DNA of 32,000 nucleotides, taken from the NCBI GenBank assembly GCA_030549845.1, contig JAUQQN010000005.1, forward strand, positions 1 through 32,000, given 5' to 3'. The translations under genes were made by a program, and so were the position numbers. A model generated the notes under the pieces. The model saw only the letters and a program-made list of their open reading frames with translations, was not told the DNA's origin and made no database searches. Source of the DNA: Patescibacteria group bacterium (GTDB lineage Bacteria > Patescibacteriota > Minisyncoccia > UBA6257 > HR35). The stretch's first letter is position 1. The number at the start of each line of letters is the position of its first letter. Shown in pieces: positions 2 through 31,657 of the stretch.

Positions 2-427
2 GACCTCGTTGGATATATTGATTTAATAACTAAAAATAAAGAAATTTACGAGTTAAAAACAACACAAAAAACGCCATCAAATGAAGAAGTTGAAAAGGAC
101 CCGCAAGTCTCGTTCTATAACTTTCTGCTAAAAAATGCCGATTTTGTAACAAATCCCAAAATTATTAAAGAATTTGTGATTTTTTTGCAGACCCCCAGGG
201 TTAAGCGCTATATAGTAAAAGCAGATGATTTGCGAATGAGAGATGAAACGGTATTAAATTATATAAATAACATCATTAGGGCAATTGAAAATAACATCTT
301 TTATTGCATTCACCCATCGAATTCATGGATTTGTTCAAGTGGCTGGTGCGGCTATACAAAACTTCATAAAGAATTAAGAGAAAAAGGCCTTGAATGGATT
401 TTAACAAAATATTCAAAAAGTAATTAA
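2..427 (+). CDS. PD-(D/E)XK nuclease, Cas4/RecB-like; C-terminal part, 5' end outside window
   Basis: Frame 2 is open from the window edge (DLVGYIDLI..EIYELKT..DPQVSFYNFLL) into track ORF 176..427. It shows D, ExK (ELK) and QxxxY (QVSFY) motifs plus a C-terminal Cys cluster (YCIHPSNSWICSSGWCGY), as in Cas4/AddB-type nucleases. Motif reading only. Confidence 0.6.
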   Translation, partial: DLVGYIDLITKNKEIYELKTTQKTPSNEEVEKDPQVSFYNFLLKNADFVTNPKIIKEFVIFLQTPRVKRYIVKADDLRMRDETVLNYINNIIRAIENNIFYCIHPSNSWICSSGWCGYTKLHKELREKGLEWILTKYSKSN

Positions 428-3050: not shown

Positions 3051-3158
3051 GTCAACAAAAAGATTTTTGTTGAAGTAATAAGAGATAAAAGTGAGAACCC
3101 CTATGATTTATGGGAAAATTGTTGCAGGAAAGTGGGGTGTAAAAAGGTCGGTAATTAA
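3051..3158 (+). pseudogene. remnant of a second SLT-gene 3' end (C-terminal 35 codons only)
   Basis: The frame starting at 3051 gives VNKKIFVEVIRDKSENPYDLWENCCRKVGCKKVGN*. This is collinear with the end of ORF 1309..1755 (VNKKIFTEIVNDAAENPYNLWPICCKKIGCKFKN*), about 21/34 identical by eye. An in-frame stop at 3030-3032 leaves no upstream catalytic part. Confidence 0.7.
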
Positions 3159-3174
3159 AAGAGAAAAGTTAAAA

Positions 3175-3501
3175 ATGGAGAACATTGATAAAGAAGATTT
3201 GTTAATAAAAACCGTAAATATTTTACGTAATCGTCTTTTGGAGTTACACTCAAAAATAAATGAAGCAAGTATAAATAAAGATGAAGTAAACGCTCTTGTT
3301 TTAAATATTTTAGATGATTTTGAAAAATTGATGTCGTTGGTTAATGAAGCATTGTCTACGATACAATCATTAAACAAAATGATTGATAGATTGGAAGATA
3401 GGGTTTCTAAATTAAACAAAGAACTAAATTTTATGGGGGAATTAGCAACAAAAATGTATTTTGGATGGGAAGATGAACAAACACCGCCAAAAAGGTTATA
3501 A
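3175..3501 (+). CDS. coiled-coil protein (108 aa from ATG 3175)
   Basis: Track ORF 3091..3501 begins at a GTG inside the SLT remnant, so ATG 3175 (MENIDKEDLL) is more plausible. Heptad-like LLELHSKINE..LMSLVNEAL..RLEDRVSKLNKEL. Confidence 0.6.
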   Translation: MENIDKEDLLIKTVNILRNRLLELHSKINEASINKDEVNALVLNILDDFEKLMSLVNEALSTIQSLNKMIDRLEDRVSKLNKELNFMGELATKMYFGWEDEQTPPKRL

Positions 3502-3799
3502 ATTAGAACATTTTCTTGAGAAATTCTTTAACGAAAACGGAATTGAAGTAAAAAGACGAGGTTTGGCTTATGAAGAAGACTTAATTTTCATCAAAACTGG
3601 TGAAAAAATGGAGGTTAAGAATAGAAAAAATGCAAATTTAAGCCAAATTTATGAATTTTTGGGTGAAAATGACTATTTGGCGATTAAACAAACAAGTAGA
3701 AAGCATAGAAATAGGCCTATTTTAATTGTTTTAAGATTAGAGAAGTTTTTGGAACTATTAAAAAATCAAATGAGTTGTCGTGTTTCTTGTGATGCGTAG
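3473..3799 (+). CDS. Hjc-like Holliday-junction resolvase (PD-(D/E)XK)
   Basis: KGYKLEHFLEKFFNENGIEVKRRG..EDLIFIKTGEKMEVKNRK..DYLAIK aligns by eye with archaeal Hjc (E..D..EVK catalytic pattern, PYLAIK-like strand). Track position 3461 is TTG; the first ATG is 3473. Confidence 0.55.
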   Translation: MNKHRQKGYKLEHFLEKFFNENGIEVKRRGLAYEEDLIFIKTGEKMEVKNRKNANLSQIYEFLGENDYLAIKQTSRKHRNRPILIVLRLEKFLELLKNQMSCRVSCDA

Positions 3800-3814: not shown

Positions 3815-3842
3815 AAATGGGGGGGCTAATTGCCCCCCATTT
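3815..3842. terminator. bidirectional intrinsic terminator between convergent genes
   Basis: AAATGGGGGGGC-TAATT-GCCCCCCATTT is a G/C stem. It is followed by TTGTTT on + and by a T-run on - (complement of AATAAAA). It lies between the stop at 3799 (+) and the stop at 3845 (-). Confidence 0.8.
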
Positions 3843-3844
3843 GT

Positions 3845-4441
3845 TTAAAGCCTAATAGAATAAAGAGTTTTACTATCTAAATATCCAAATGAATTTACTG
3901 CCAAAAGATAATATTTCCCCGTACTAGTATCTTTAGCGTAAATACCGCCGCCAGATATTCCTGGTATAACAACTCCCTGGGTGATTATATATTTTTCATC
4001 TTTATTTATTATCCTTGGCCTCCACGATTTACCAAAAACAGCCTGCGGGCAACCAAATGCTACAGTAATTTCGCCAACATTTTCAATATTCGGTGGTGGT
4101 AAATTACAAGGATTAAGGTGTTTGGGAGTTATTATCTGACAAAATGCTAAATCACTTTCAACGTTTAGTATAACATCTTTTATTGGAATAGTAGCTATTC
4201 TACAGTCATCTATGAAAAGCGTAGCATTTGCATCACTAAATGGAAAAGAAAAAAGGTGGGCGGCGGTTATTATGCCAACTGGAGTAATAGTACCGGCACC
4301 GCAAACCATTCTTTCGCTGTTTTCTACAATAACAGAGCAAACAAATCTTTTAATTTCTTCATCGAAATACGGAAAAATCCATGGAAGAAATTCGAATAAG
4401 AGCCTATTTTTCTTAAACAAAACATATTTTGGGCGGAACAT
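3845..4441 (-). CDS. trypsin-like serine protease
   Basis: His (ITAAHLF), Asp (SDLAFCQI) and Ser (PGISGGGIY, GxSGG) are present in the chymotrypsin-fold order. Preferred start is ATG 4441, 5 nt after AGGGGGTGA; track position 4450 is a GTG inside that SD. Confidence 0.6.
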   Translation of the reverse strand: MFRPKYVLFKKNRLLFEFLPWIFPYFDEEIKRFVCSVIVENSERMVCGAGTITPVGIITAAHLFSFPFSDANATLFIDDCRIATIPIKDVILNVESDLAFCQIITPKHLNPCNLPPPNIENVGEITVAFGCPQAVFGKSWRPRIINKDEKYIITQGVVIPGISGGGIYAKDTSTGKYYLLAVNSFGYLDSKTLYSIRL

Positions 4442-4465
4442 ATGCCTCACCCCCTTGTTTTGTTT

Positions 4466-5116
4466 TTAGATTATTAAATTCTCGTGTTTCTTATCTCTAC
4501 AAGAGCATCTTGGCGGCGTATCCATAACTAAAAAAGTATGAAGCATTTGTGCTCTTTGAATTAAATGCTCTAAATACCAATCAGAGTAAAAGTGTGGGAA
4601 TTCTTTAAGTTTTAAACCACCATCTAAATCATATCCAGCATACAATAGTACTCCTTTTACTCTTTTTAGCGCAGCTAAATAAAAATTAAGCTGAAGTTTG
4701 TGCGCAAAATGTGGATTTGGCGGGACAGTTCTTACGTGTTTAAATTCCCACACCTCCTCATCAACTCCTTTTCCCCTAATAGCATCTGCGTGTCCAATAA
4801 TCTTTATTTTCTCGCCAGCAACATCAACGTCTATAGAGCACTCAACCTCAACCCTATCCCAGAAATTTTTTCCTTCCCTATCTTTTAATGATTGGATCAG
4901 TCTATGAAAAACTACGCCACCAGCCAATAAAAGAACAATATCGTCTGGAATTTCTTCCGGCTTTTTACCATCAAAAAATCGATAATAATTAAACTGCTTC
5001 CTTGTGCAGCTCCACGCCAAAACAGATGGTCTGTAAATTCCAATCTTCACTGGCTGATTATTCTCGCCGAAATACTTTTTTCTACAATAATCCGCGAGTA
5101 ATTTTTGTATTGTCAT
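4466..5116 (-). CDS. PD-(D/E)XK nuclease, Cas4-like
   Basis: N-terminal Cys (WSCTRKQFNYY), GGVVFHRL, GHADAI (D), EFK (ExK), QLNFY (QxxxY) and a C-terminal RCSC. Strong SD AGGGGTGAT lies 5 nt before the ATG. Confidence 0.55.
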   Translation of the reverse strand: MTIQKLLADYCRKKYFGENNQPVKIGIYRPSVLAWSCTRKQFNYYRFFDGKKPEEIPDDIVLLLAGGVVFHRLIQSLKDREGKNFWDRVEVECSIDVDVAGEKIKIIGHADAIRGKGVDEEVWEFKHVRTVPPNPHFAHKLQLNFYLAALKRVKGVLLYAGYDLDGGLKLKEFPHFYSDWYLEHLIQRAQMLHTFLVMDTPPRCSCRDKKHENLII

Positions 5117-5158
5117 GGCTTATCACCCCTGTTTTTGTTTTTTAGTTGCTATTTGAAA

Positions 5159-5185
5159 ATTATAAAACAATTTTTATTTTGTCAA
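5159..5185 (-). promoter_or_regulatory. sigma70-type promoter for the nuclease-protease operon
   Basis: The minus strand reads TTGACA (5185-5180), then 15 nt, then TATAAT (5164-5159). About 40 nt upstream of ATG 5116. The spacer is shorter than optimal. Confidence 0.5.
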
Positions 5186-5206
5186 CAACTAAAGATATGA
5201 TATAAT
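5179..5206 (+). promoter_or_regulatory. sigma70-type extended -10 promoter for ORF 5213..5479 (probably a leaderless mRNA)
   Basis: TTGTCA (5179-5184), 16-nt spacer, TGATATAAT (TATAAT at 5201-5206). Only 6 nt separate the -10 from ATG 5213. Confidence 0.6.
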
Positions 5207-5212
5207 AATTTT

Positions 5213-5479
5213 ATGTTTTTCAAAAATATTAATAAAGATTCAAATGAGAATGAATTTTTTGAAACGGCAGACTTTGGATTAATAGTTTACCTCACTTATT
5301 TGGGATATAAAATTGTTGAGATTAAAAAAACTAATAATAAAAGAAAAATATTTGTTTTTAAAAGAACTCCAAAAATAGAAATTGACATAAAACAATTTTG
5401 GGAAAGAGAGGCGATGGTTGAGCCACAGCAATTTTTAAACACCATAAAATACGTAAAAAGCAGAATATACAATTCGTGA
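5213..5479 (+). CDS. small phage protein (88 aa), DUF5659-like by recollection
   Basis: FETADFGLIVYLTYLGYKIVEI..KIFVFKRT resembles a small domain common in phages. This comes from memory and is not verified. Confidence 0.5.
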   Translation: MFFKNINKDSNENEFFETADFGLIVYLTYLGYKIVEIKKTNNKRKIFVFKRTPKIEIDIKQFWEREAMVEPQQFLNTIKYVKSRIYNS

Positions 5480-5504: not shown

Positions 5505-5636
5505 TTATTCTTCCTCTTCTATTTTTTCCCAGTCTTCTTCTTCCCAGCTCTCTTCTTCATTTTCTTCTTCGTCTTCTTCATAATAAAAACCCTCTTTATA
5601 ATATTCGTCTCCCTCACTTGAGGGAATATAGTTCAT
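5505..5636 (-). CDS. very acidic small protein (43 aa)
   Basis: My own translation: MNYIPSSEGDEYYKEGFYYEEDEEENEEESWEEEDWEKIEEEE*. Starts 6 nt after the holin-like stop. Low-complexity, so coding status is uncertain. Confidence 0.35.
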   Translation of the reverse strand: MNYIPSSEGDEYYKEGFYYEEDEEENEEESWEEEDWEKIEEEE

Positions 5637-6947: not shown

Positions 6948-7181
6948 TTAAAGTTTTTGAATGTTAACATTGCACTTATTAATTGACCCCCATATCCTCA
7001 TTAATCTTCTTATAAGTCTTATATTTCTACCCCTTTTACCAACTAACATTGGTAGATTATTTTTATCGCAAACTATTTTTAAATCAATTCCTCTTTCATT
7101 TATATCACTAACAACATCTACAGAAAATCCCCATATCAACTCTATTAAATTTTTAATTGTTTTTTCCGCCCTCTCCCTCAT
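6948..7181 (-). CDS. KH-domain RNA-binding protein (KhpA/YlqC-like, 77 aa)
   Basis: LKIVCDKNNLPMLVGKRGRNIRLIRRLM contains the GxxG loop (GKRG). Its length and layout match the small bacterial KH proteins. Confidence 0.55.
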   Translation of the reverse strand: MRERAEKTIKNLIELIWGFSVDVVSDINERGIDLKIVCDKNNLPMLVGKRGRNIRLIRRLMRIWGSINKCNVNIQKL

Positions 7182-10411: not shown

Positions 10412-11921
10412 GATTAAGTTTTGATTGGAATTCTTCTATTAGGCTTTGTATTGATAATATTTCTTTTTCTAATGATTTAACCATATAAGAATTTATAAGC
10501 ATTGATTTTATGGTGTGGTAATCATATAACGGCTTAAATTCAAATTTTTCTTCTAAAATATTTTCAAAAACCCACCCAATTCTAGTGGCTATGTTATTTT
10601 TATAGCCTTTATCAATTATATCAAAAAAGCTTCTTTTATAAAAATCAACAAATTTAAAGTTAAAATCTATAAGACTGTCTGCTTTTAAAAAAGCTAATTG
10701 CCAATCATCATCTGATCCAGTTACTACAGCTAAATTTTTATCATATCCGCACGATACTAATTTATTACCAACTCTTTTAACATCCCAAAGCCAGATGTCT
10801 TTATTTTTGATATCTGTTAATATGGTTGAATTTTGTAAGGATAATTTTGCATATTTTTTGTCTGGCAATATGTTAAAAATTCTAAAACTTGCCCCAAATT
10901 TTAATGGTTTTAATTCATAAAAAGGAACACCATTTTTAATTGCTATAAAATAATCACCAACCCTAGAAAATGTAGATAGCTTATTAAAAACACTATTCCA
11001 CCCCTCCCTATTTGGACAAAATTCGCTAAAGTAAAATTTATCTCTTGAGGGAGAATACATTACTCCAATATCCCAAATAACAAACTCGTTATCTCCCCTA
11101 AGGAACATTTCTTCCATTGGCCTAAAAAACATATCATAAATTCTTTCTGCTTGTTCTTGTTTTTTAATCCAAAAAATAACAGATGCCGCATCTCCGGTTT
11201 GAAAACCACTATTTGCTGGACCAATTGGTTTAAGTTCTATATCTATGCTCATACCAATTAATTTTCTATCCCTAATAACTATTTCTGGGACAAACTCAAT
11301 TAAATCATCTATTTTCTCTTCTAATATAAATCCACCATCTTCATATAATGTTTTATCTTCTTCTAAAATATTAATCACCTCGTCTCTTGCAATTAGTGGA
11401 ATATCTGATAATGGAACAAATGTTTCTGCGTTTATATTTTTACCCTTTACAACCCATACCTTATCCGTATTTTTTAAAAATTCTTTTGCTTCTTCTACTT
11501 TATTAAACTCATGAATTTCTTGTTTGGCAAATAAATTGTGATTCTTAAAGATGTATTCTTTTGCTATTTCTCTATTTGTTTCAAACAAAAAATCTTGTTT
11601 TGTTGGAAATAGACCGAAATAACCCATTTGTTTTATTTGATTAGCATAAGGATAAAGAAAATTAAAATCACAAAATATTAAATAATCATCTCTTTTTCTC
11701 TCCTTATTTAAAAAATTAATAACATCGTCAATTCTCTTTTTTTCTATTATTCCATCATAAAGCTGTAATCTTCTTTCTTTTTCCTCGGGAATTTCATCTG
11801 GTAAATCTTTTAATTCCTCTACTTGCCCAACTATTACATCCCATCCCTCTTGTTGCAATTTAAGAGCTATTGGCATACCATGACCATCATATGTAATTAA
11901 GACAAATTTTGGCTTATTCAT
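10404..11921 (-). CDS. ATP-grasp enzyme, PurD-like fold (505 aa)
   Basis: KFVLITYDGHGMPIALKLQQEGWDV (Rossmann-like N-domain), VWVVKGKN, GFILEEKI and GVMYSPSRDKFYFSEFCPNREGWN parallel PurD-type motifs (VVKADGLAAGKG, IEE, GVLYxGLM..EFNxRFGDPE). Overlaps both neighbours by 8 nt. Confidence 0.45.
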   Translation of the reverse strand: MNKPKFVLITYDGHGMPIALKLQQEGWDVIVGQVEELKDLPDEIPEEKERRLQLYDGIIEKKRIDDVINFLNKERKRDDYLIFCDFNFLYPYANQIKQMGYFGLFPTKQDFLFETNREIAKEYIFKNHNLFAKQEIHEFNKVEEAKEFLKNTDKVWVVKGKNINAETFVPLSDIPLIARDEVINILEEDKTLYEDGGFILEEKIDDLIEFVPEIVIRDRKLIGMSIDIELKPIGPANSGFQTGDAASVIFWIKKQEQAERIYDMFFRPMEEMFLRGDNEFVIWDIGVMYSPSRDKFYFSEFCPNREGWNSVFNKLSTFSRVGDYFIAIKNGVPFYELKPLKFGASFRIFNILPDKKYAKLSLQNSTILTDIKNKDIWLWDVKRVGNKLVSCGYDKNLAVVTGSDDDWQLAFLKADSLIDFNFKFVDFYKRSFFDIIDKGYKNNIATRIGWVFENILEEKFEFKPLYDYHTIKSMLINSYMVKSLEKEILSIQSLIEEFQSKLNHE

Positions 11922-23621: not shown

Positions 23622-24116
23622 TTATTCTAAACCATAAATTTTTTTGAACTCCTCTCTGGCTCTTTTTTCAAGTTGATCCATTGGCAAAGAAGATAAATCC
23701 TCCTCAAGGCTTGGTGAAATTGTTTTAGATCCCAAAGAAAATCCACTAATATTTTGATTTGTTTCGTTTTCAAGTATTTTTTTACCTATATATCTTGATA
23801 CCGTGTCTTCTATGGGTTCTCCTTGTTTTCTTAAATTCCATATATCATCTATCTCGTTTGCTAGGTGTGGAAATTTTTTTAAAATAGTATTCTCAAAATC
23901 TAGTTTATCAACCTTCAATGCTAACTCATCTATATTCGCTATTCTCGAAACTGTTTTTAGATGCTTATTTTCTTCCTCTAATTCTTTTAATCTTTTAAGC
24001 GAATCCTCATATTTTTTTCTTAAAAGCTTAATAACATTACTCTCTACATCGTTTTTAACATTTTCTTGTTTATTTTCTTCTTTTTGTTCCTCTTGTTCTT
24101 TTATTTCTTCGCCCAT
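23622..24116 (-). CDS. scaffolding protein
   Basis: Acidic coiled-coil protein (EEQKEENKQEN..LKRLKELEEENKHLK) between portal and capsid. Track start 24152 is TTG; the first ATG is 24116 (MGEEIKEQ). Confidence 0.6.
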   Translation of the reverse strand: MGEEIKEQEEQKEENKQENVKNDVESNVIKLLRKKYEDSLKRLKELEEENKHLKTVSRIANIDELALKVDKLDFENTILKKFPHLANEIDDIWNLRKQGEPIEDTVSRYIGKKILENETNQNISGFSLGSKTISPSLEEDLSSLPMDQLEKRAREEFKKIYGLE

Positions 24117-24170
24117 TATTTTACGCTTGATTGGTCGGGAGCAACCAATCAAGGATAATTAATTACTTTT

Positions 24171-24512
24171 TTAAAGATAAAAATTCAATATTTCTGGGTC
24201 TTGGTATCCCCCCATGTTTTCAACAAGTCTTCTACATGTTTCGGCATTACAAATCCACACCTCGAGCCTCTTCCAGTATTTATATATACTTTGAGAAAAT
24301 CTTTGTGGATTACTAGAGCCCCCACAAAGGCATTTAAATGTTTTGTTTTTAAATAAATAACCCAATTCTTCGCACTCGTCTACTTTTTTACCACAAAATT
24401 CACACCTACCACCAATAATTCTTAATGACTCAATTTTTTTATGCCCAACCGCGCTCTCTTCCCCACCATTATTTTGTTCAACTATAATTTCTTCTTTATT
24501 TTTTCTTGCCAT
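24171..24512 (-). CDS. zinc-ribbon protein (113 aa)
   Basis: CEFCGKKVDEC..CLCGG..WICNAETC cysteine pairs. Confidence 0.55.
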   Translation of the reverse strand: MARKNKEEIIVEQNNGGEESAVGHKKIESLRIIGGRCEFCGKKVDECEELGYLFKNKTFKCLCGGSSNPQRFSQSIYKYWKRLEVWICNAETCRRLVENMGGYQDPEILNFYL

Positions 24513-24519
24513 AATTTTA

Positions 24520-24834
24520 TTATAAACCCTCTTTTTCTTTTGTCAAGAAAGAGGTATATAGGTCTATTTGTTTAATTAATTCCGATGGTAAAGAAATTAA
24601 AAAATCAATAGCAACCAAACTTTGTTTATATGCATAAAAGTCGTCTATAGATCCTCTTGTATCCTTTTTAAAATTATCTAAAAGGTTCTCTCTAGCCTCA
24701 AGTAATATACTTTTTAAAACAGACCATTCTTCTGAACCCTCTAAAACCCTTAATTTGGTTAAAATTCTATGTGCTTTTTCTAAATCATCTCCTATTAATT
24801 TTTCTAATGTTTTTTGAAAATAAATATCCTGCAT
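24520..24834 (-). CDS. hypothetical protein (104 aa)
   Basis: ORF in the head-module operon. Helical. Confidence 0.55.
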   Translation of the reverse strand: MQDIYFQKTLEKLIGDDLEKAHRILTKLRVLEGSEEWSVLKSILLEARENLLDNFKKDTRGSIDDFYAYKQSLVAIDFLISLPSELIKQIDLYTSFLTKEKEGL

Positions 24835-29543: not shown

Positions 29544-29709
29544 GTTTCCAATGAACTAGTGTAGGATTGAAAGACTTATTTTTATTTTAATAATATAAAA
29601 AAATCTTTTGTTTCCAATGAACTAGTGTAGGATTGAAAGGAAATTAAAGCAAGTGTAGATAAAATTACACTAACACTAAGTTTCCAATGAACTAGTGTAG
29701 GATTGAAAG
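29544..29709 (+). CRISPR. cas-less CRISPR mini-array: 3 identical 30-nt repeats, 2 spacers (36 and 40 nt)
   Basis: GTTTCCAATGAACTAGTGTAGGATTGAAAG at 29544-29573, 29610-29639 and 29680-29709. Spacers are ACTTATTTTTATTTTAATAATATAAAAAAATCTTTT and GAAATTAAAGCAAGTGTAGATAAAATTACACTAACACTAA. Orientation is set by the 3' ATTGAAAG tag. A 178-bp AT-rich leader lies upstream. Confidence 0.8.
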
Positions 29710-29896: not shown

Positions 29897-29924
29897 TTGA
29901 CAAAAAAAATTTGAGGAATATAAT
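29897..29924 (+). promoter_or_regulatory. consensus sigma70 promoter
   Basis: TTGACA (29897-29902), 16-nt spacer, TATAAT (29919-29924). Both hexamers are perfect. Confidence 0.7.
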
Positions 29925-30003: not shown

Positions 30004-30399
30004 ATGAATGAAAAAGAAAGAAGAAAAATTAAAGTTGAAAAAATTAATTTTAGGGGCGAGGAAGTGTATACAATCAAACTTAGAAGGTGGCTCTCTCACG
30101 GTAAGGAGTGGGCAGCCCTAATTGTAAACGGAGTAATAACTAGTGATGGTAAAAAAATAATAAATTTAGAATTTTGCCCGAAAATAATTTTTGAGTGGTC
30201 TCATTCAGGAAAAAACGGAACAACTATAGTGAAATTGTTAGGAGGAGGATTTTACAAAATCTCAAATCCTGATGGTGTTTACGGAAAAGACGCCATTGGC
30301 TATTATTTCTGGGATGGAAAAAGTGATGAAATGAAAGAAGTGGATGAAGACTTTGCAATTATTTACGCAGATACATGGTCTTATCACATCCAAAAATAA
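30004..30399 (+). CDS. hypothetical protein (131 aa)
   Basis: ORF downstream of the consensus promoter. No motif recognised. Confidence 0.65.
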   Translation: MNEKERRKIKVEKINFRGEEVYTIKLRRWLSHGKEWAALIVNGVITSDGKKIINLEFCPKIIFEWSHSGKNGTTIVKLLGGGFYKISNPDGVYGKDAIGYYFWDGKSDEMKEVDEDFAIIYADTWSYHIQK

Positions 30400-30491: not shown

Positions 30492-30535
30492 TAAATTTTA
30501 TTTTTTAAGATTCTAAATTTTATTTTTTAAGATTC
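30492..30535 (+). repeat. 22-bp tandem duplication x2 (TAAATTTTATTTTTTAAGATTC)
   Basis: Copies at 30492-30513 and 30514-30535 are identical. The second copy contains the stop and last codons of ORF 30527..31657 (-). Confidence 0.7.
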
Positions 30536-31657
30536 TGCTGTAAGATTTTTATATTCCTCTTCAGTAATTTTAAATTTCCAAGCAAATGCGGAATAGACAC
30601 TATTTATATTTTTTGGAATAAATGAAATATATTCTTTCCCTGTGCTTATATCTTTATATTTTAAAAATTTAACAAAATCATTTGTATTTTCATTTAAAAC
30701 CATCCACAACTCCCCCCTCTCATTTTTATCTTTTAAAACAGCCAATTTTTCATACTCAAGTGCTTTTTCTAATCCGCCAATAAATTTTGTAAATATAACT
30801 CTTTTTTCTACATTTCTTATTCCTAATAAATTATAAATACTAATATTTTTATTTAAAATAAGAGAAGACTCAAGCACCTCTTTGTCTGAGTTCTCATGTA
30901 ATAATAAATATTTAAAATCTATTTTATTTTTTTCTAACAAATTTTTTAAAATGTTTAAATCATTAACATCTTGAAAGTTAAAATAAAAATAAAATGATTG
31001 CATAAAAAAATCTGAATTAGAATTAAATAAATTATATAAACTTTCTTTATTTATTAATAATTTCATAACCCCGCTTATGTGCATTTTTTTATTATTAATA
31101 ATTTCTATTCCAAGCATGTCAACAACATCTACATTCTCAATAATTACTTCTTTTGTGCTTACTTTCTTTTTCTCTCTTAAAACCGGCAAAAATGATAAAA
31201 CATTACCCCTTTTTATATTAATATTTTTAATTCTTTTATTTTTATTTTCAACAAAAAGCATTAAATTATCAAACCCCTCACCCTCTATAACCTGAAAATT
31301 TGAGAAAACCTTAAAAGATTTTTTTATATTATTAAAAGAAAAATAAGTATATATTTTTTTATCGACCGTCAGCTGTGCAGTTTTTGAATAAACATCATTT
31401 AAATAAATTTTTAAATAGCTACTTAAAACAGGTAAATTATTATCTATTTTAATATCTAGCTCTCCTGTCTCTAGCCCCTGCACAACAACATTTTTAACAT
31501 TTAAAAAATTACAATATAAAAACTCATTAACTTTTTCATTATAATTTTTCCCTGTTAAATAAACATCTTTTATATTTTCCTCATAAAATTCTAAAACTTT
31601 ACTTTCTTTTTTACTTGTATAATTTTCATCTTTTATTAATATTTTTTTATCAAGCAT
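30527..31657 (-). CDS. hypothetical protein (376 aa), very Lys/Asn/Ile-rich
   Basis: Long ORF. The C-terminal GELWMVLNE..YKDISTGKEYISFIPKNINSVYSAFAWKFKITEEEY resembles a conserved C-terminal module of uncharacterised proteins that I cannot name with certainty. Confidence 0.6.
   Translation of the reverse strand: MLDKKILIKDENYTSKKESKVLEFYEENIKDVYLTGKNYNEKVNEFLYCNFLNVKNVVVQGLETGELDIKIDNNLPVLSSYLKIYLNDVYSKTAQLTVDKKIYTYFSFNNIKKSFKVFSNFQVIEGEGFDNLMLFVENKNKRIKNINIKRGNVLSFLPVLREKKKVSTKEVIIENVDVVDMLGIEIINNKKMHISGVMKLLINKESLYNLFNSNSDFFMQSFYFYFNFQDVNDLNILKNLLEKNKIDFKYLLLHENSDKEVLESSLILNKNISIYNLLGIRNVEKRVIFTKFIGGLEKALEYEKLAVLKDKNERGELWMVLNENTNDFVKFLKYKDISTGKEYISFIPKNINSVYSAFAWKFKITEEEYKNLTAES

Follow-up and report, generated by a model that had tools for sequence, protein, structure and literature searches.

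A separately controlled gene pair for a predicted Cas4-like nuclease and a predicted HtrA-like serine protease in a tailed-phage genome and its metagenomic relatives

The window analysed here, the whole 32 kb stretch formed by positions 1 to 32,000 of contig JAUQQN010000005.1 (assembly GCA_030549845.1, Patescibacteria group bacterium), is a tailed-phage genome of about 30% G+C content (GC) that encodes an M23 lysin, a KH protein, a capsid protein, an SU10-type portal, a terminase, an HTH_36 replication initiator and a RusA/Hjc-like resolvase. It contains a cassette of two minus-strand genes, one for a nuclease (4466-5116) and one for a protease (3845-4441), separated by 24 nucleotides (nt; 4442-4465). 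The cassette sits inside the early genes, one of which is the plus-strand DUF5659 open reading frame (ORF) at 5213-5479, and its orientation matches that of the late/lysis block ending at 5505. Its parts are as follows.

4466-5116, minus strand: solo Cas4-family (RecB-type PD-(D/E)XK) nuclease of 216 amino acids (aa), assigned by family scans, profile search and structure prediction
3845-4441, minus strand: minimal HtrA-like S1 serine protease of 198 aa, PDZ-less, assigned by its AlphaFold2 (AF2) fold, an invariant triad and weak Pfam scores
5159-5185, minus strand: promoter of the cassette by sequence reading, with TTGACA at 5185-5180, a 15-nt spacer and TATAAT at 5164-5159
5117-5145, minus strand: leader 1, with the A/C-rich tract CTAAAAAACAAAAAC, the Shine-Dalgarno sequence (SD) GGGGTGA at 5129-5123, 6 nt to the ATG, and a pairing free energy (dG) of -12.6
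4442-4469, minus strand: leader 2, CTAAAAACAAAACAA, with the SD GGGGGTGA at 4454-4447, 5 nt to the ATG, and a dG of -16.2; it overlaps the nuclease stop codon
3815-3842 in its extended form (hairpin 3820-3838), both strands: terminator with 7 G-C pairs and U/T-rich tails on each side

The promoter scores 12/12 and is one of only three perfect promoters that our own scan found in the 32 kb; a standard promoter scan with spacers of 16-18 nt misses it because of its 15-nt spacer. It overlaps a divergent promoter (TTGTCA, 16 nt, TGnTATAAT) that serves the DUF5659 gene. The two leaders, whose core sequences are CTAAAAAACAAAAACAGGGGTGAT (5145-5122) and CTAAAAACAAAACAAGGGGGTGA (4469-4447), constitute a 17-nt repeat at 88% (repeat D10), and a search of the window for the leader motif returned only the two leader sites and one match at chance level. 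When the 42 genes were ranked by the pairing of their SDs with the anti-SD, the cassette genes came third (nuclease, -12.6 kcal/mol) and first (protease, -16.2 kcal/mol), and only two other genes reached -10.5 kcal/mol or lower. The start codon of the protease is the ATG at 4441: the GTG at 4450 falls within the SD, and homologues begin with MFRP. The terminator folds at -20.9 and -21.1 kcal/mol on the two strands and also ends the convergent early operon, so that it is shared and bidirectional; the gene converging on it encodes the RusA/Hjc-like Holliday-junction resolvase (3461-3799, plus strand; PHROG 244, 1.8e-8). Flanking direct or inverted repeats that might mark a mobile element were limited to AT-rich pairs at chance level. 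A preliminary description of this locus had proposed a tight minus-strand pair with a 24-nt gap, its own TTGACA/TATAAT promoter, a G/C-rich bidirectional terminator, and near-identical A/C-rich leaders with long SDs of a kind that almost no other gene of the window possesses, and each of these features was recovered in place. The anatomy is thus confirmed, and the signals read from the sequence support the cassette as a real two-gene unit that is self-contained and separately controlled.

The same description held that the cassette is less AT-rich than its surroundings. This is true of the immediate neighbours (GC 35-37% in the cassette versus 25-30%) and of the relatives described below, but within the window the capsid gene (37.7%) and others are equally high, and the GC of third codon positions (GC3) is an outlier only for the nuclease (0.30 versus a background of 0.21 +/- 0.04, z about 2.3).

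Family scans assigned the nuclease to Pfam PDDEXK_1 (7.5e-5), PHROG 1706 (2e-9) and the PADLOC Cas4 models (1.4e-7). The Pfam threshold for PDDEXK_1 was narrowly passed (23.2 versus 22 bits), and that of the curated Cas_Cas4 model PF01930 was not (13.5 versus 22.7 bits). A profile of the nuclease family, which comprises 25 clusters, matched SSO0001 Cas4 (4ic1) at 2.6e-9 among PDB sequences, and the AF2 model (predicted local distance difference test score, pLDDT, 94) has the same protein as its top Foldseek match (E 8.5e-11, template modelling score, TM, 0.62-0.66). Across 25 sequences there is no variation in the catalytic residues D111, E124-F-K126 and Q142-L-N-F-Y146. E90, C93 and C204-x-C206 are also invariant; C37 is nearly so, as is H211 in an alignment of 16 sequences. 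The canonical Cas4 cluster motif consists of one N-terminal Cys plus C-x2-C-x5-C. Three cysteines of the cassette nuclease are placed similarly to this iron-sulphur (Fe-S) motif with different spacing, in the pattern C...C-x-C accompanied by a conserved His/Cys. Neither cas1 nor cas2 was found in the window or in related loci, which identifies the gene as a solo nuclease gene of the type carried by mobile genetic elements (MGEs).

The nuclease shares with solo and MGE-borne Cas4 proteins (SSO0001, the viral Cas4 of the SIRV2 gp19 type and the Cas4-like proteins of Campylobacter phages) the RecB-type core, the D, ExK and QhxxY motifs, and conserved N- and C-terminal cysteines in positions that might suit a metal cluster, SSO0001 being its best match in both structure and sequence. 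As with many MGE Cas4 genes, its gene belongs to a virus and stands apart from any cas operon (Hudaiberdiev et al., PMC5704561). It differs from them in its cysteine pattern, in being led in every case by its own promoter and a long SD, and in usually having a dedicated protease behind it; a protease partner of Cas4 is not mentioned in the phylogenomic survey of the family, in the text of which the word "protease" is absent (PMC5704561). Structure prediction and motif content confirm the Cas4/RecB-type fold with RecB-type PD-(D/E)XK motifs, as the preliminary description had proposed, and the protein is predicted to be catalytically active, to bear a metal cluster and to process DNA ends. A second Cas4-like PD-(D/E)XK gene of the early operon (2-427, plus strand; PHROG 1706, 7.8e-11) is cut by the start of the window; its C-terminal 141 aa contain the motifs GYIDLI, IYELK, QVSFY and C-x8-C-x4-C and, over the region of these motifs, share 27% identity with the cassette nuclease.

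The protease was recognized chiefly by its fold. Its AF2 model (pLDDT 92.6) matches the protease domains of HtrA1, DegP and DegS at a TM of about 0.65, with the domain spanning residues 34-197 of 198, and H62, D97 and G161-x-S163-G-G-G (GISGGG) are invariant in 26 sequences. Pfam scores fall below the cut-offs (Trypsin_2, 19.9 versus 27.6 bits; Trypsin, 18.3 versus 20.6 bits), although several homologues carry a precomputed PF13365 match. The Pfam scan found no PDZ domain, no signal peptide is present, and no prohead or capsid protease family of Pfam or PHROG was matched. In an exhaustive hidden Markov model search of 1.84 billion representatives, the family proved to be sharply bounded: 17 clusters (50% identity) at E<1e-25 are followed by a gap and then by generic S1 peptidases at E of about 1e-11, and 25 clusters of homologues were collected altogether. 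The chymotrypsin double-barrel fold, the ordered H-D-S triad and the GxSGG motif are those of S1C proteases of the HtrA/DegP/DegS type, from which the cassette protease differs in its 198-aa size, in lacking a PDZ domain and a signal peptide, in its sub-threshold Pfam scores, in belonging to a tiny separate family and in being phage-encoded. The assignment to the trypsin-like proteases made earlier therefore holds at the level of predicted structure, and the protein is predicted to be a small cytoplasmic HtrA-like serine endopeptidase that is catalytically active.

Relatives of the window are metagenomic phage contigs (labelled L001 and so forth), the longer of which are syntenic with it. The nuclease is present in most of them, being near-universal in the lineage, and the order nuclease-then-protease recurs in about a dozen distinct contigs (L003, L006, L008, L010, L011, L012, L020/21, L024, L025, L026, L027, L031, L033 and L035-37), as the preliminary description would have predicted of homologues elsewhere. 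In L004, an orphan AAGGAGGTGA directly follows the nuclease stop codon (4518-4545) with no gene behind it and looks like the relic of a lost protease. A 157-aa gene downstream of the nuclease in L001 was considered as a diverged protease and rejected. A distant relative, L040, has a phage-type cassette in which the gene before the protease encodes an SbcD/Mre11-like exonuclease (Metallophos; PHROG 284, 1e-42) and has an SD of its own, while a terminator comes after the protease; its gene content shows that the order of an exonuclease and then this protease is kept even when the exonuclease has been replaced by a non-orthologous one. Distant cellular homologues of the protease stand alone, among metabolic genes in L044 and beside xseA/xseB in L042. 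Two of the three distant homologues that were looked up sit among housekeeping genes, and neither family was seen in a cellular defence island. Neither protein was matched in the GenBank phage collection by tblastn. Two further observations concern these contigs: L003 has an SD-like AAAGGAGGCG and a 5-codon mini-ORF after its protease (11432-11490), and the early region of L038 (4940-6334; L019, 432-1826), a phage without a Cas4-like gene, encodes a 464-aa protein with TROVE and vWA domains (Ro60-like).

The signals of the cassette are conserved along with its genes. A long AAGGAGGTGA SD is essentially confined to cassette genes in the relatives: in L001, L003, L004, L006 and L038, a dG of -10.5 kcal/mol or lower was found for 7/7 cassette genes (range -10.5 to -20) versus 1/112 others. 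Upstream of the nuclease, the promoter, a leader with CTAAAA and an A/C-rich tract, and the SD can be aligned across relatives. A promoter of the same type (-35 TTGACA, TTGACT, TTGAAA, TTGTAA or TTGTCA, with TATAAT) precedes the nuclease in L003, L004, L006, L008, L011, L012, L024, L026, L027 and L031, and a leader running from CTAAAA through an A/C-rich tract to AGGAGG is found in L004, L011, L012, L024, L027, L031 and L033. Our reading of the folds places a GC-rich hairpin, usually with a U-run after it, within 60 nt after the cassette in 10 of 14 relatives; it is absent from L003, L006 and L034. Self-containment and separate control, claimed for the window, are thereby extended to the lineage by the recurrence of promoter, strong SDs and terminator.

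The compositional difference is larger in the relatives, where the cassette has a GC of 0.40-0.52 versus 0.28-0.36 in the backbones (+0.10-0.15) and GC3 is raised in every case (z 1.8-8), by an offset that tracks the GC3 of each backbone. A protease standing alone (L038, L034) retains both the SD and the higher GC. Recent horizontal transfer was rejected as the only reason for the GC offset, given that the offset is found in every relative and tracks backbone GC3 and that the nuclease has diverged like the core genes. The cellular contig L044 (GC 0.26) allows a comparison with a host-like genome: its protease homologue carries a strong SD, AAAGGAGGT, all of its 14 neighbours (14/14) lack one, and the neighbouring genes fall in 90% clusters named Candidatus Calescibacterium or Minisyncoccia. 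The SD-less genes of the phage thus appear to follow the norm of the host, to which the cassette is the exception.

Two observations touch on how the other genes may be started. The motif (G)GTCG-N1-4-ATTAA occurs about 16 nt before many starts in L001, L003, L004, L006, L008, L011, L012, L026 and L038, at 1.5-4 times its frequency in shuffled sequences and mostly before ORF starts; it could serve the lineage as a signal for initiation without an SD, for processing or as a promoter signal. In the window, where it is found once (3147), it shows no enrichment. The gene listed at 3091-3501 (plus strand) probably starts at the ATG at 3175 (MENIDKE...), 16 nt after a single GTCGGTAATTAA, rather than at the listed GTG at 3091. 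Separately, -10 elements of the form TGnTATAAT (or full consensus) lie only about 5-7 nt before an ATG at 5198, 5962, 7603 and 27386 (and 24519-24546), which suggests leaderless mRNAs as a main initiation mode of the phage.

Sequence divergence is unevenly distributed between the two cassette genes. Between the window and its relatives, the nuclease is 61-69% identical and the protease 30-34%, a divergence about twice as fast in the protease; the corresponding figures for core genes are 59-67% for the lysin (plus a partial match of 74%), 55-57% for the portal and 50-52% for the terminase. The preliminary suggestion of an acquired accessory module is weakened for the nuclease, which is no sporadic recent acquisition: it is present in most relatives, with 61-69% identity beside 50-67% for lysin, portal and terminase. 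A nuclease conserved across related phages is part of what that description had itself named as a ground for refuting its interpretation. In Mantel tests on pairwise identities, based on 5-9 taxa, the nuclease co-varied with the protease (rho 0.78, p 0.001) and two backbone genes co-varied with each other (rho 0.96, p 0.004), whereas the correlation between the nuclease and the backbone genes was not significant (rho 0.29-0.39). Discordant pairs of contigs exist in both directions: L011 and L024 are 94% identical in the nuclease and 90% in the protease but 53% in a backbone SLT-like gene, whereas L003 and L026 are 65% and 44% identical in the cassette genes and 74% and 84% in backbone genes. 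The co-variation and the discordant pairs together indicate that the cassette is passed on as a single unit, which at times moves from one backbone to another.

Other features of the window were also catalogued. No integrase, repressor or lysogeny module was found in it; a tRNA scan was negative, and Rfam gave no significant match for the whole window or for the CRISPR (clustered regularly interspaced short palindromic repeat) array region. This region contains a mini-array (29544-29709, plus strand) of three perfect 30-nt repeats GTTTCCAATGAACTAGTGTAGGATTGAAAG, with one spacer of 36 nt and one of 40 nt. ORF 30527-31657 of the same phage contains a protospacer for spacer 1 (31313-31348, minus strand) that agrees with it at 35/36 positions and differs at spacer position 11. 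The array has no cas genes in its vicinity, neither the repeat (30 nt and 18 nt) nor spacer 2 has an exact match in IMG/VR or in the fetched loci, and no CRISPR-like array was found in the fetched parts of cassette-carrying relatives. Just downstream of the array, a second unit with a perfect promoter (TTGACA, 16 nt, TATAAT; 29897-29924) leads to ORF 30004-30399 (plus strand, 131 aa), which has the SD GAGGTGG, no Pfam or PHROG match, the highest GC3 (0.28) of the non-cassette genes of at least 100 aa, and minus-strand genes on both sides. A small KH-domain (KhpA/B-like) RNA-binding protein is encoded beside the lysis genes (6948-7181, minus strand) and has a homologue in L001.

The explanation that we favour, and to which we give about an even chance, is that the cassette is a conserved, insulated, exchangeable and separately expressed exonuclease-protease unit, for which host takeover or counter-defence is the most likely role. 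Its carriers would be a lineage of uncultivated tailed phages of about 25-40 kb with an SU10-type portal, infecting a low-GC bacterium that rarely uses SDs. From a near-consensus promoter of the sigma-70 type, a single mRNA ending at the strong hairpin would be made, in which each cistron would be preceded by an A/C-rich leader free of structure and by a long SD able to pair with the 3' end of 16S rRNA; nearly all other phage genes do without an SD. The cassette may in this way be expressed independently of the early and late programmes, by an SD-dependent route of translation. The nuclease may act on DNA ends, in the breakdown of host DNA, in recombination-dependent replication or in interference with CRISPR adaptation, and the target of the fast-evolving protease may be a protein of the host or, with lower probability, of the phage. 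The two enzymes together would constitute an accessory module for host takeover or counter-defence, not a defence system.

Several observations weigh against this explanation. The nuclease occurs without the protease in L001, L004 and L018, the protease occurs without the nuclease in L034 and in L038/L019 (in the latter after an Hjc-like gene), and the cellular homologue in L044 has no exonuclease neighbour; separate occurrence argues against strict functional coupling and against an obligate pair of the toxin type. The nuclease shows the same degree of conservation as core genes and could simply be the replication or recombination exonuclease of the lineage. The 15-nt promoter spacer is suboptimal, the compositional signal is weak in the window itself (protease GC3 0.24 versus a background of 0.21, z about 0.8), and the Mantel tests draw on few taxa. 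The labels of the metagenome-assembled genomes (MAGs) to which contigs of the lineage were assigned disagree (Parcubacteria, Saccharibacteria, Bathyarchaeota, Calescibacterium/Minisyncoccia), and expression timing and enzyme substrates are things that we infer. With regard to the host, L001/L032, L031 and L033 were deposited inside discordant MAGs, and the lysins target peptidoglycan. The contigs of the lineage are probably mis-binned, so host assignment is unsafe, and a firm assignment to the Candidate Phyla Radiation (CPR) was rejected on account of the conflicting labels.

An ordinary replication and recombination module, in which the nuclease serves as recombination exonuclease together with the RusA/Hjc-type resolvase and the HTH_36 initiator, the protease is a passenger and the SDs only set the level of expression, is unlikely. 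Such a module would be consistent with the presence of the nuclease in most relatives at a conservation like that of portal, terminase and lysin, with the adjoining resolvase gene (3461-3799) and the Hjc-like genes next to the cassette in L038 and L040, with the replacement of the nuclease by an SbcD/Mre11-like repair exonuclease, and with the reported link of an archaeal-virus Cas4 homologue to the replication of the genome (Guo et al. 2015, cited in PMC10541130). However, the early operon already has a second Cas4-like gene (2-427), and the early region of L038 is complete without the cassette nuclease. Nor does such a module explain why, in every relative, these genes only have the SD, the raised GC3, and the private promoter and terminator, or why the protease travels and co-varies with the nuclease.

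Quite unlikely, too, is a module for counter-defence or inter-phage competition tied to CRISPR, in which the solo Cas4 biases or blocks spacer acquisition by the host, or feeds the mini-array of the phage, and the protease destroys a protein of host immunity. Published work reports that Cas4 homologues of viruses lower or redirect the acquisition of spacers (SIRV2, Campylobacter phages; PMC10541130, PMC5704561, PMC11656645), and it connects mini-arrays and Cas4 proteins of viral origin with conflict between viruses and with interference in CRISPR adaptation (PMC10541130, PMC11656645, PMC5704561). This literature keeps a CRISPR-related role open for the cassette nuclease in this phage. The self-matching spacer of the array at 29544-29709 (35/36 against ORF 30527-31657), the fast evolution of the protease and the exchange of the cassette between backbones agree with such a role, but the array lies 24 kb from the cassette and has no counterpart in the fetched parts of any cassette-carrying relative, its repeat and spacer 2 lack exact IMG/VR matches, the four-cysteine motif of Cas4 is altered, and the replacement of Cas4 by an SbcD-like enzyme does not fit a role specific to Cas1-Cas2.

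The preliminary description had proposed, beside a counter-defence module, an acquired pair acting in defence, superinfection exclusion or abortive infection, which would be a moron working for the host or against rival phages; only a slim chance is left to this interpretation, which is only partly supported. Morons are independent promoter-gene-terminator units in phage genomes, according to the Hendrix/Juhala concept (PMC3594210). By sequence, the cassette resembles them in its private promoter and terminator, in its composition (distinct from the neighbours in relatives, marginally so in the window), in the polymorphism of its presence and absence, and in its exchange between related phages. 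It differs in that its nuclease is near-universal and behaves as a core gene and in that the compositional offset persists and tracks the backbone instead of fading. Nuclease and protease domains are common among defence effectors, and weak PADLOC matches of the protease to protease-bearing entries were obtained (RT-Protease_XI, 0.0017; LmuA, 0.008). However, PADLOC-DB v2 returned only generic Cas4 models (1e-7) and these sub-threshold protease matches, with no partner genes and no system; a sensor, ATPase or NTPase partner is absent; and both families are almost confined to the phage lineage and were not seen in defence islands. Superinfection exclusion in particular loses ground, as the window has neither the integrase nor the lysogeny module that usually accompanies such a moron, and hence no evident lysogen to protect. 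The earlier statement that no described system has this pairing stands, both for PADLOC systems and for GenBank phages.

That the protease is instead a maturation protease of prohead or tail whose gene lies outside the structural block has next to no likelihood: the stretch from portal to capsid yielded no further protease gene (the scans, with one library each, covered 23622-24152 and 24171-24512 of the three small ORFs there, the third being 24520-24834, and gave no protease match), but the protease matches no prohead or maturation family, has an HtrA-like S1 fold, is encoded with the early genes behind its own promoter, is missing from L001, L004 and L018 despite the same structural genes, and has cellular homologues in non-phage contexts.

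A more far-reaching possibility, which is unlikely, is that in a host lineage almost devoid of SDs the long SD is reserved by phage and cell for a very small set of genes, including the cassette. These genes would be translated through a separate channel, open only to ribosomes in a certain state or at a certain moment of infection, and the cassette would be a weapon of host takeover or conflict made of two enzymes, in which the exonuclease is swappable (Cas4-like or SbcD-like) and the protease constant. A separate SD-dependent channel is suggested by analogy with the rpsU gene of Flavobacterium johnsoniae, an SD-led gene in an SD-blind bacterium that is translated by bS21-less ribosomes (PMC9976891, PMC7797042, PMC13000453). 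The likeness consists in very few genes with a long SD in genomes otherwise without them, and the analogy is one of mechanism only, drawn for a host that need not belong to the Bacteroidia or sequester its anti-SD. The window also has canonical TATAAT-type promoters, which are not known to be typical of Bacteroidia. A literature search for Cas4 with a protease, or for SD usage in CPR/Patescibacteria, found nothing directly relevant.

Many viruses and microbes with small genomes carry solo Cas4 genes, and the protease partner and translational signature of the cassette are undescribed for solo viral Cas4 genes and for moron-like cassettes. The cassette supplies both a conserved, dedicated and fast-evolving protease partner and a conserved regulatory signature, each of which is testable. 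The swap of exonuclease family before the same protease points to a real, undescribed functional link between exonuclease and protease. The few SD-led genes in an otherwise SD-less phage and in a host-like genome suggest that specialised SD-dependent translation, documented so far for rpsU in Bacteroidia, may be more widespread, and may include phages that partition their gene expression by this means.

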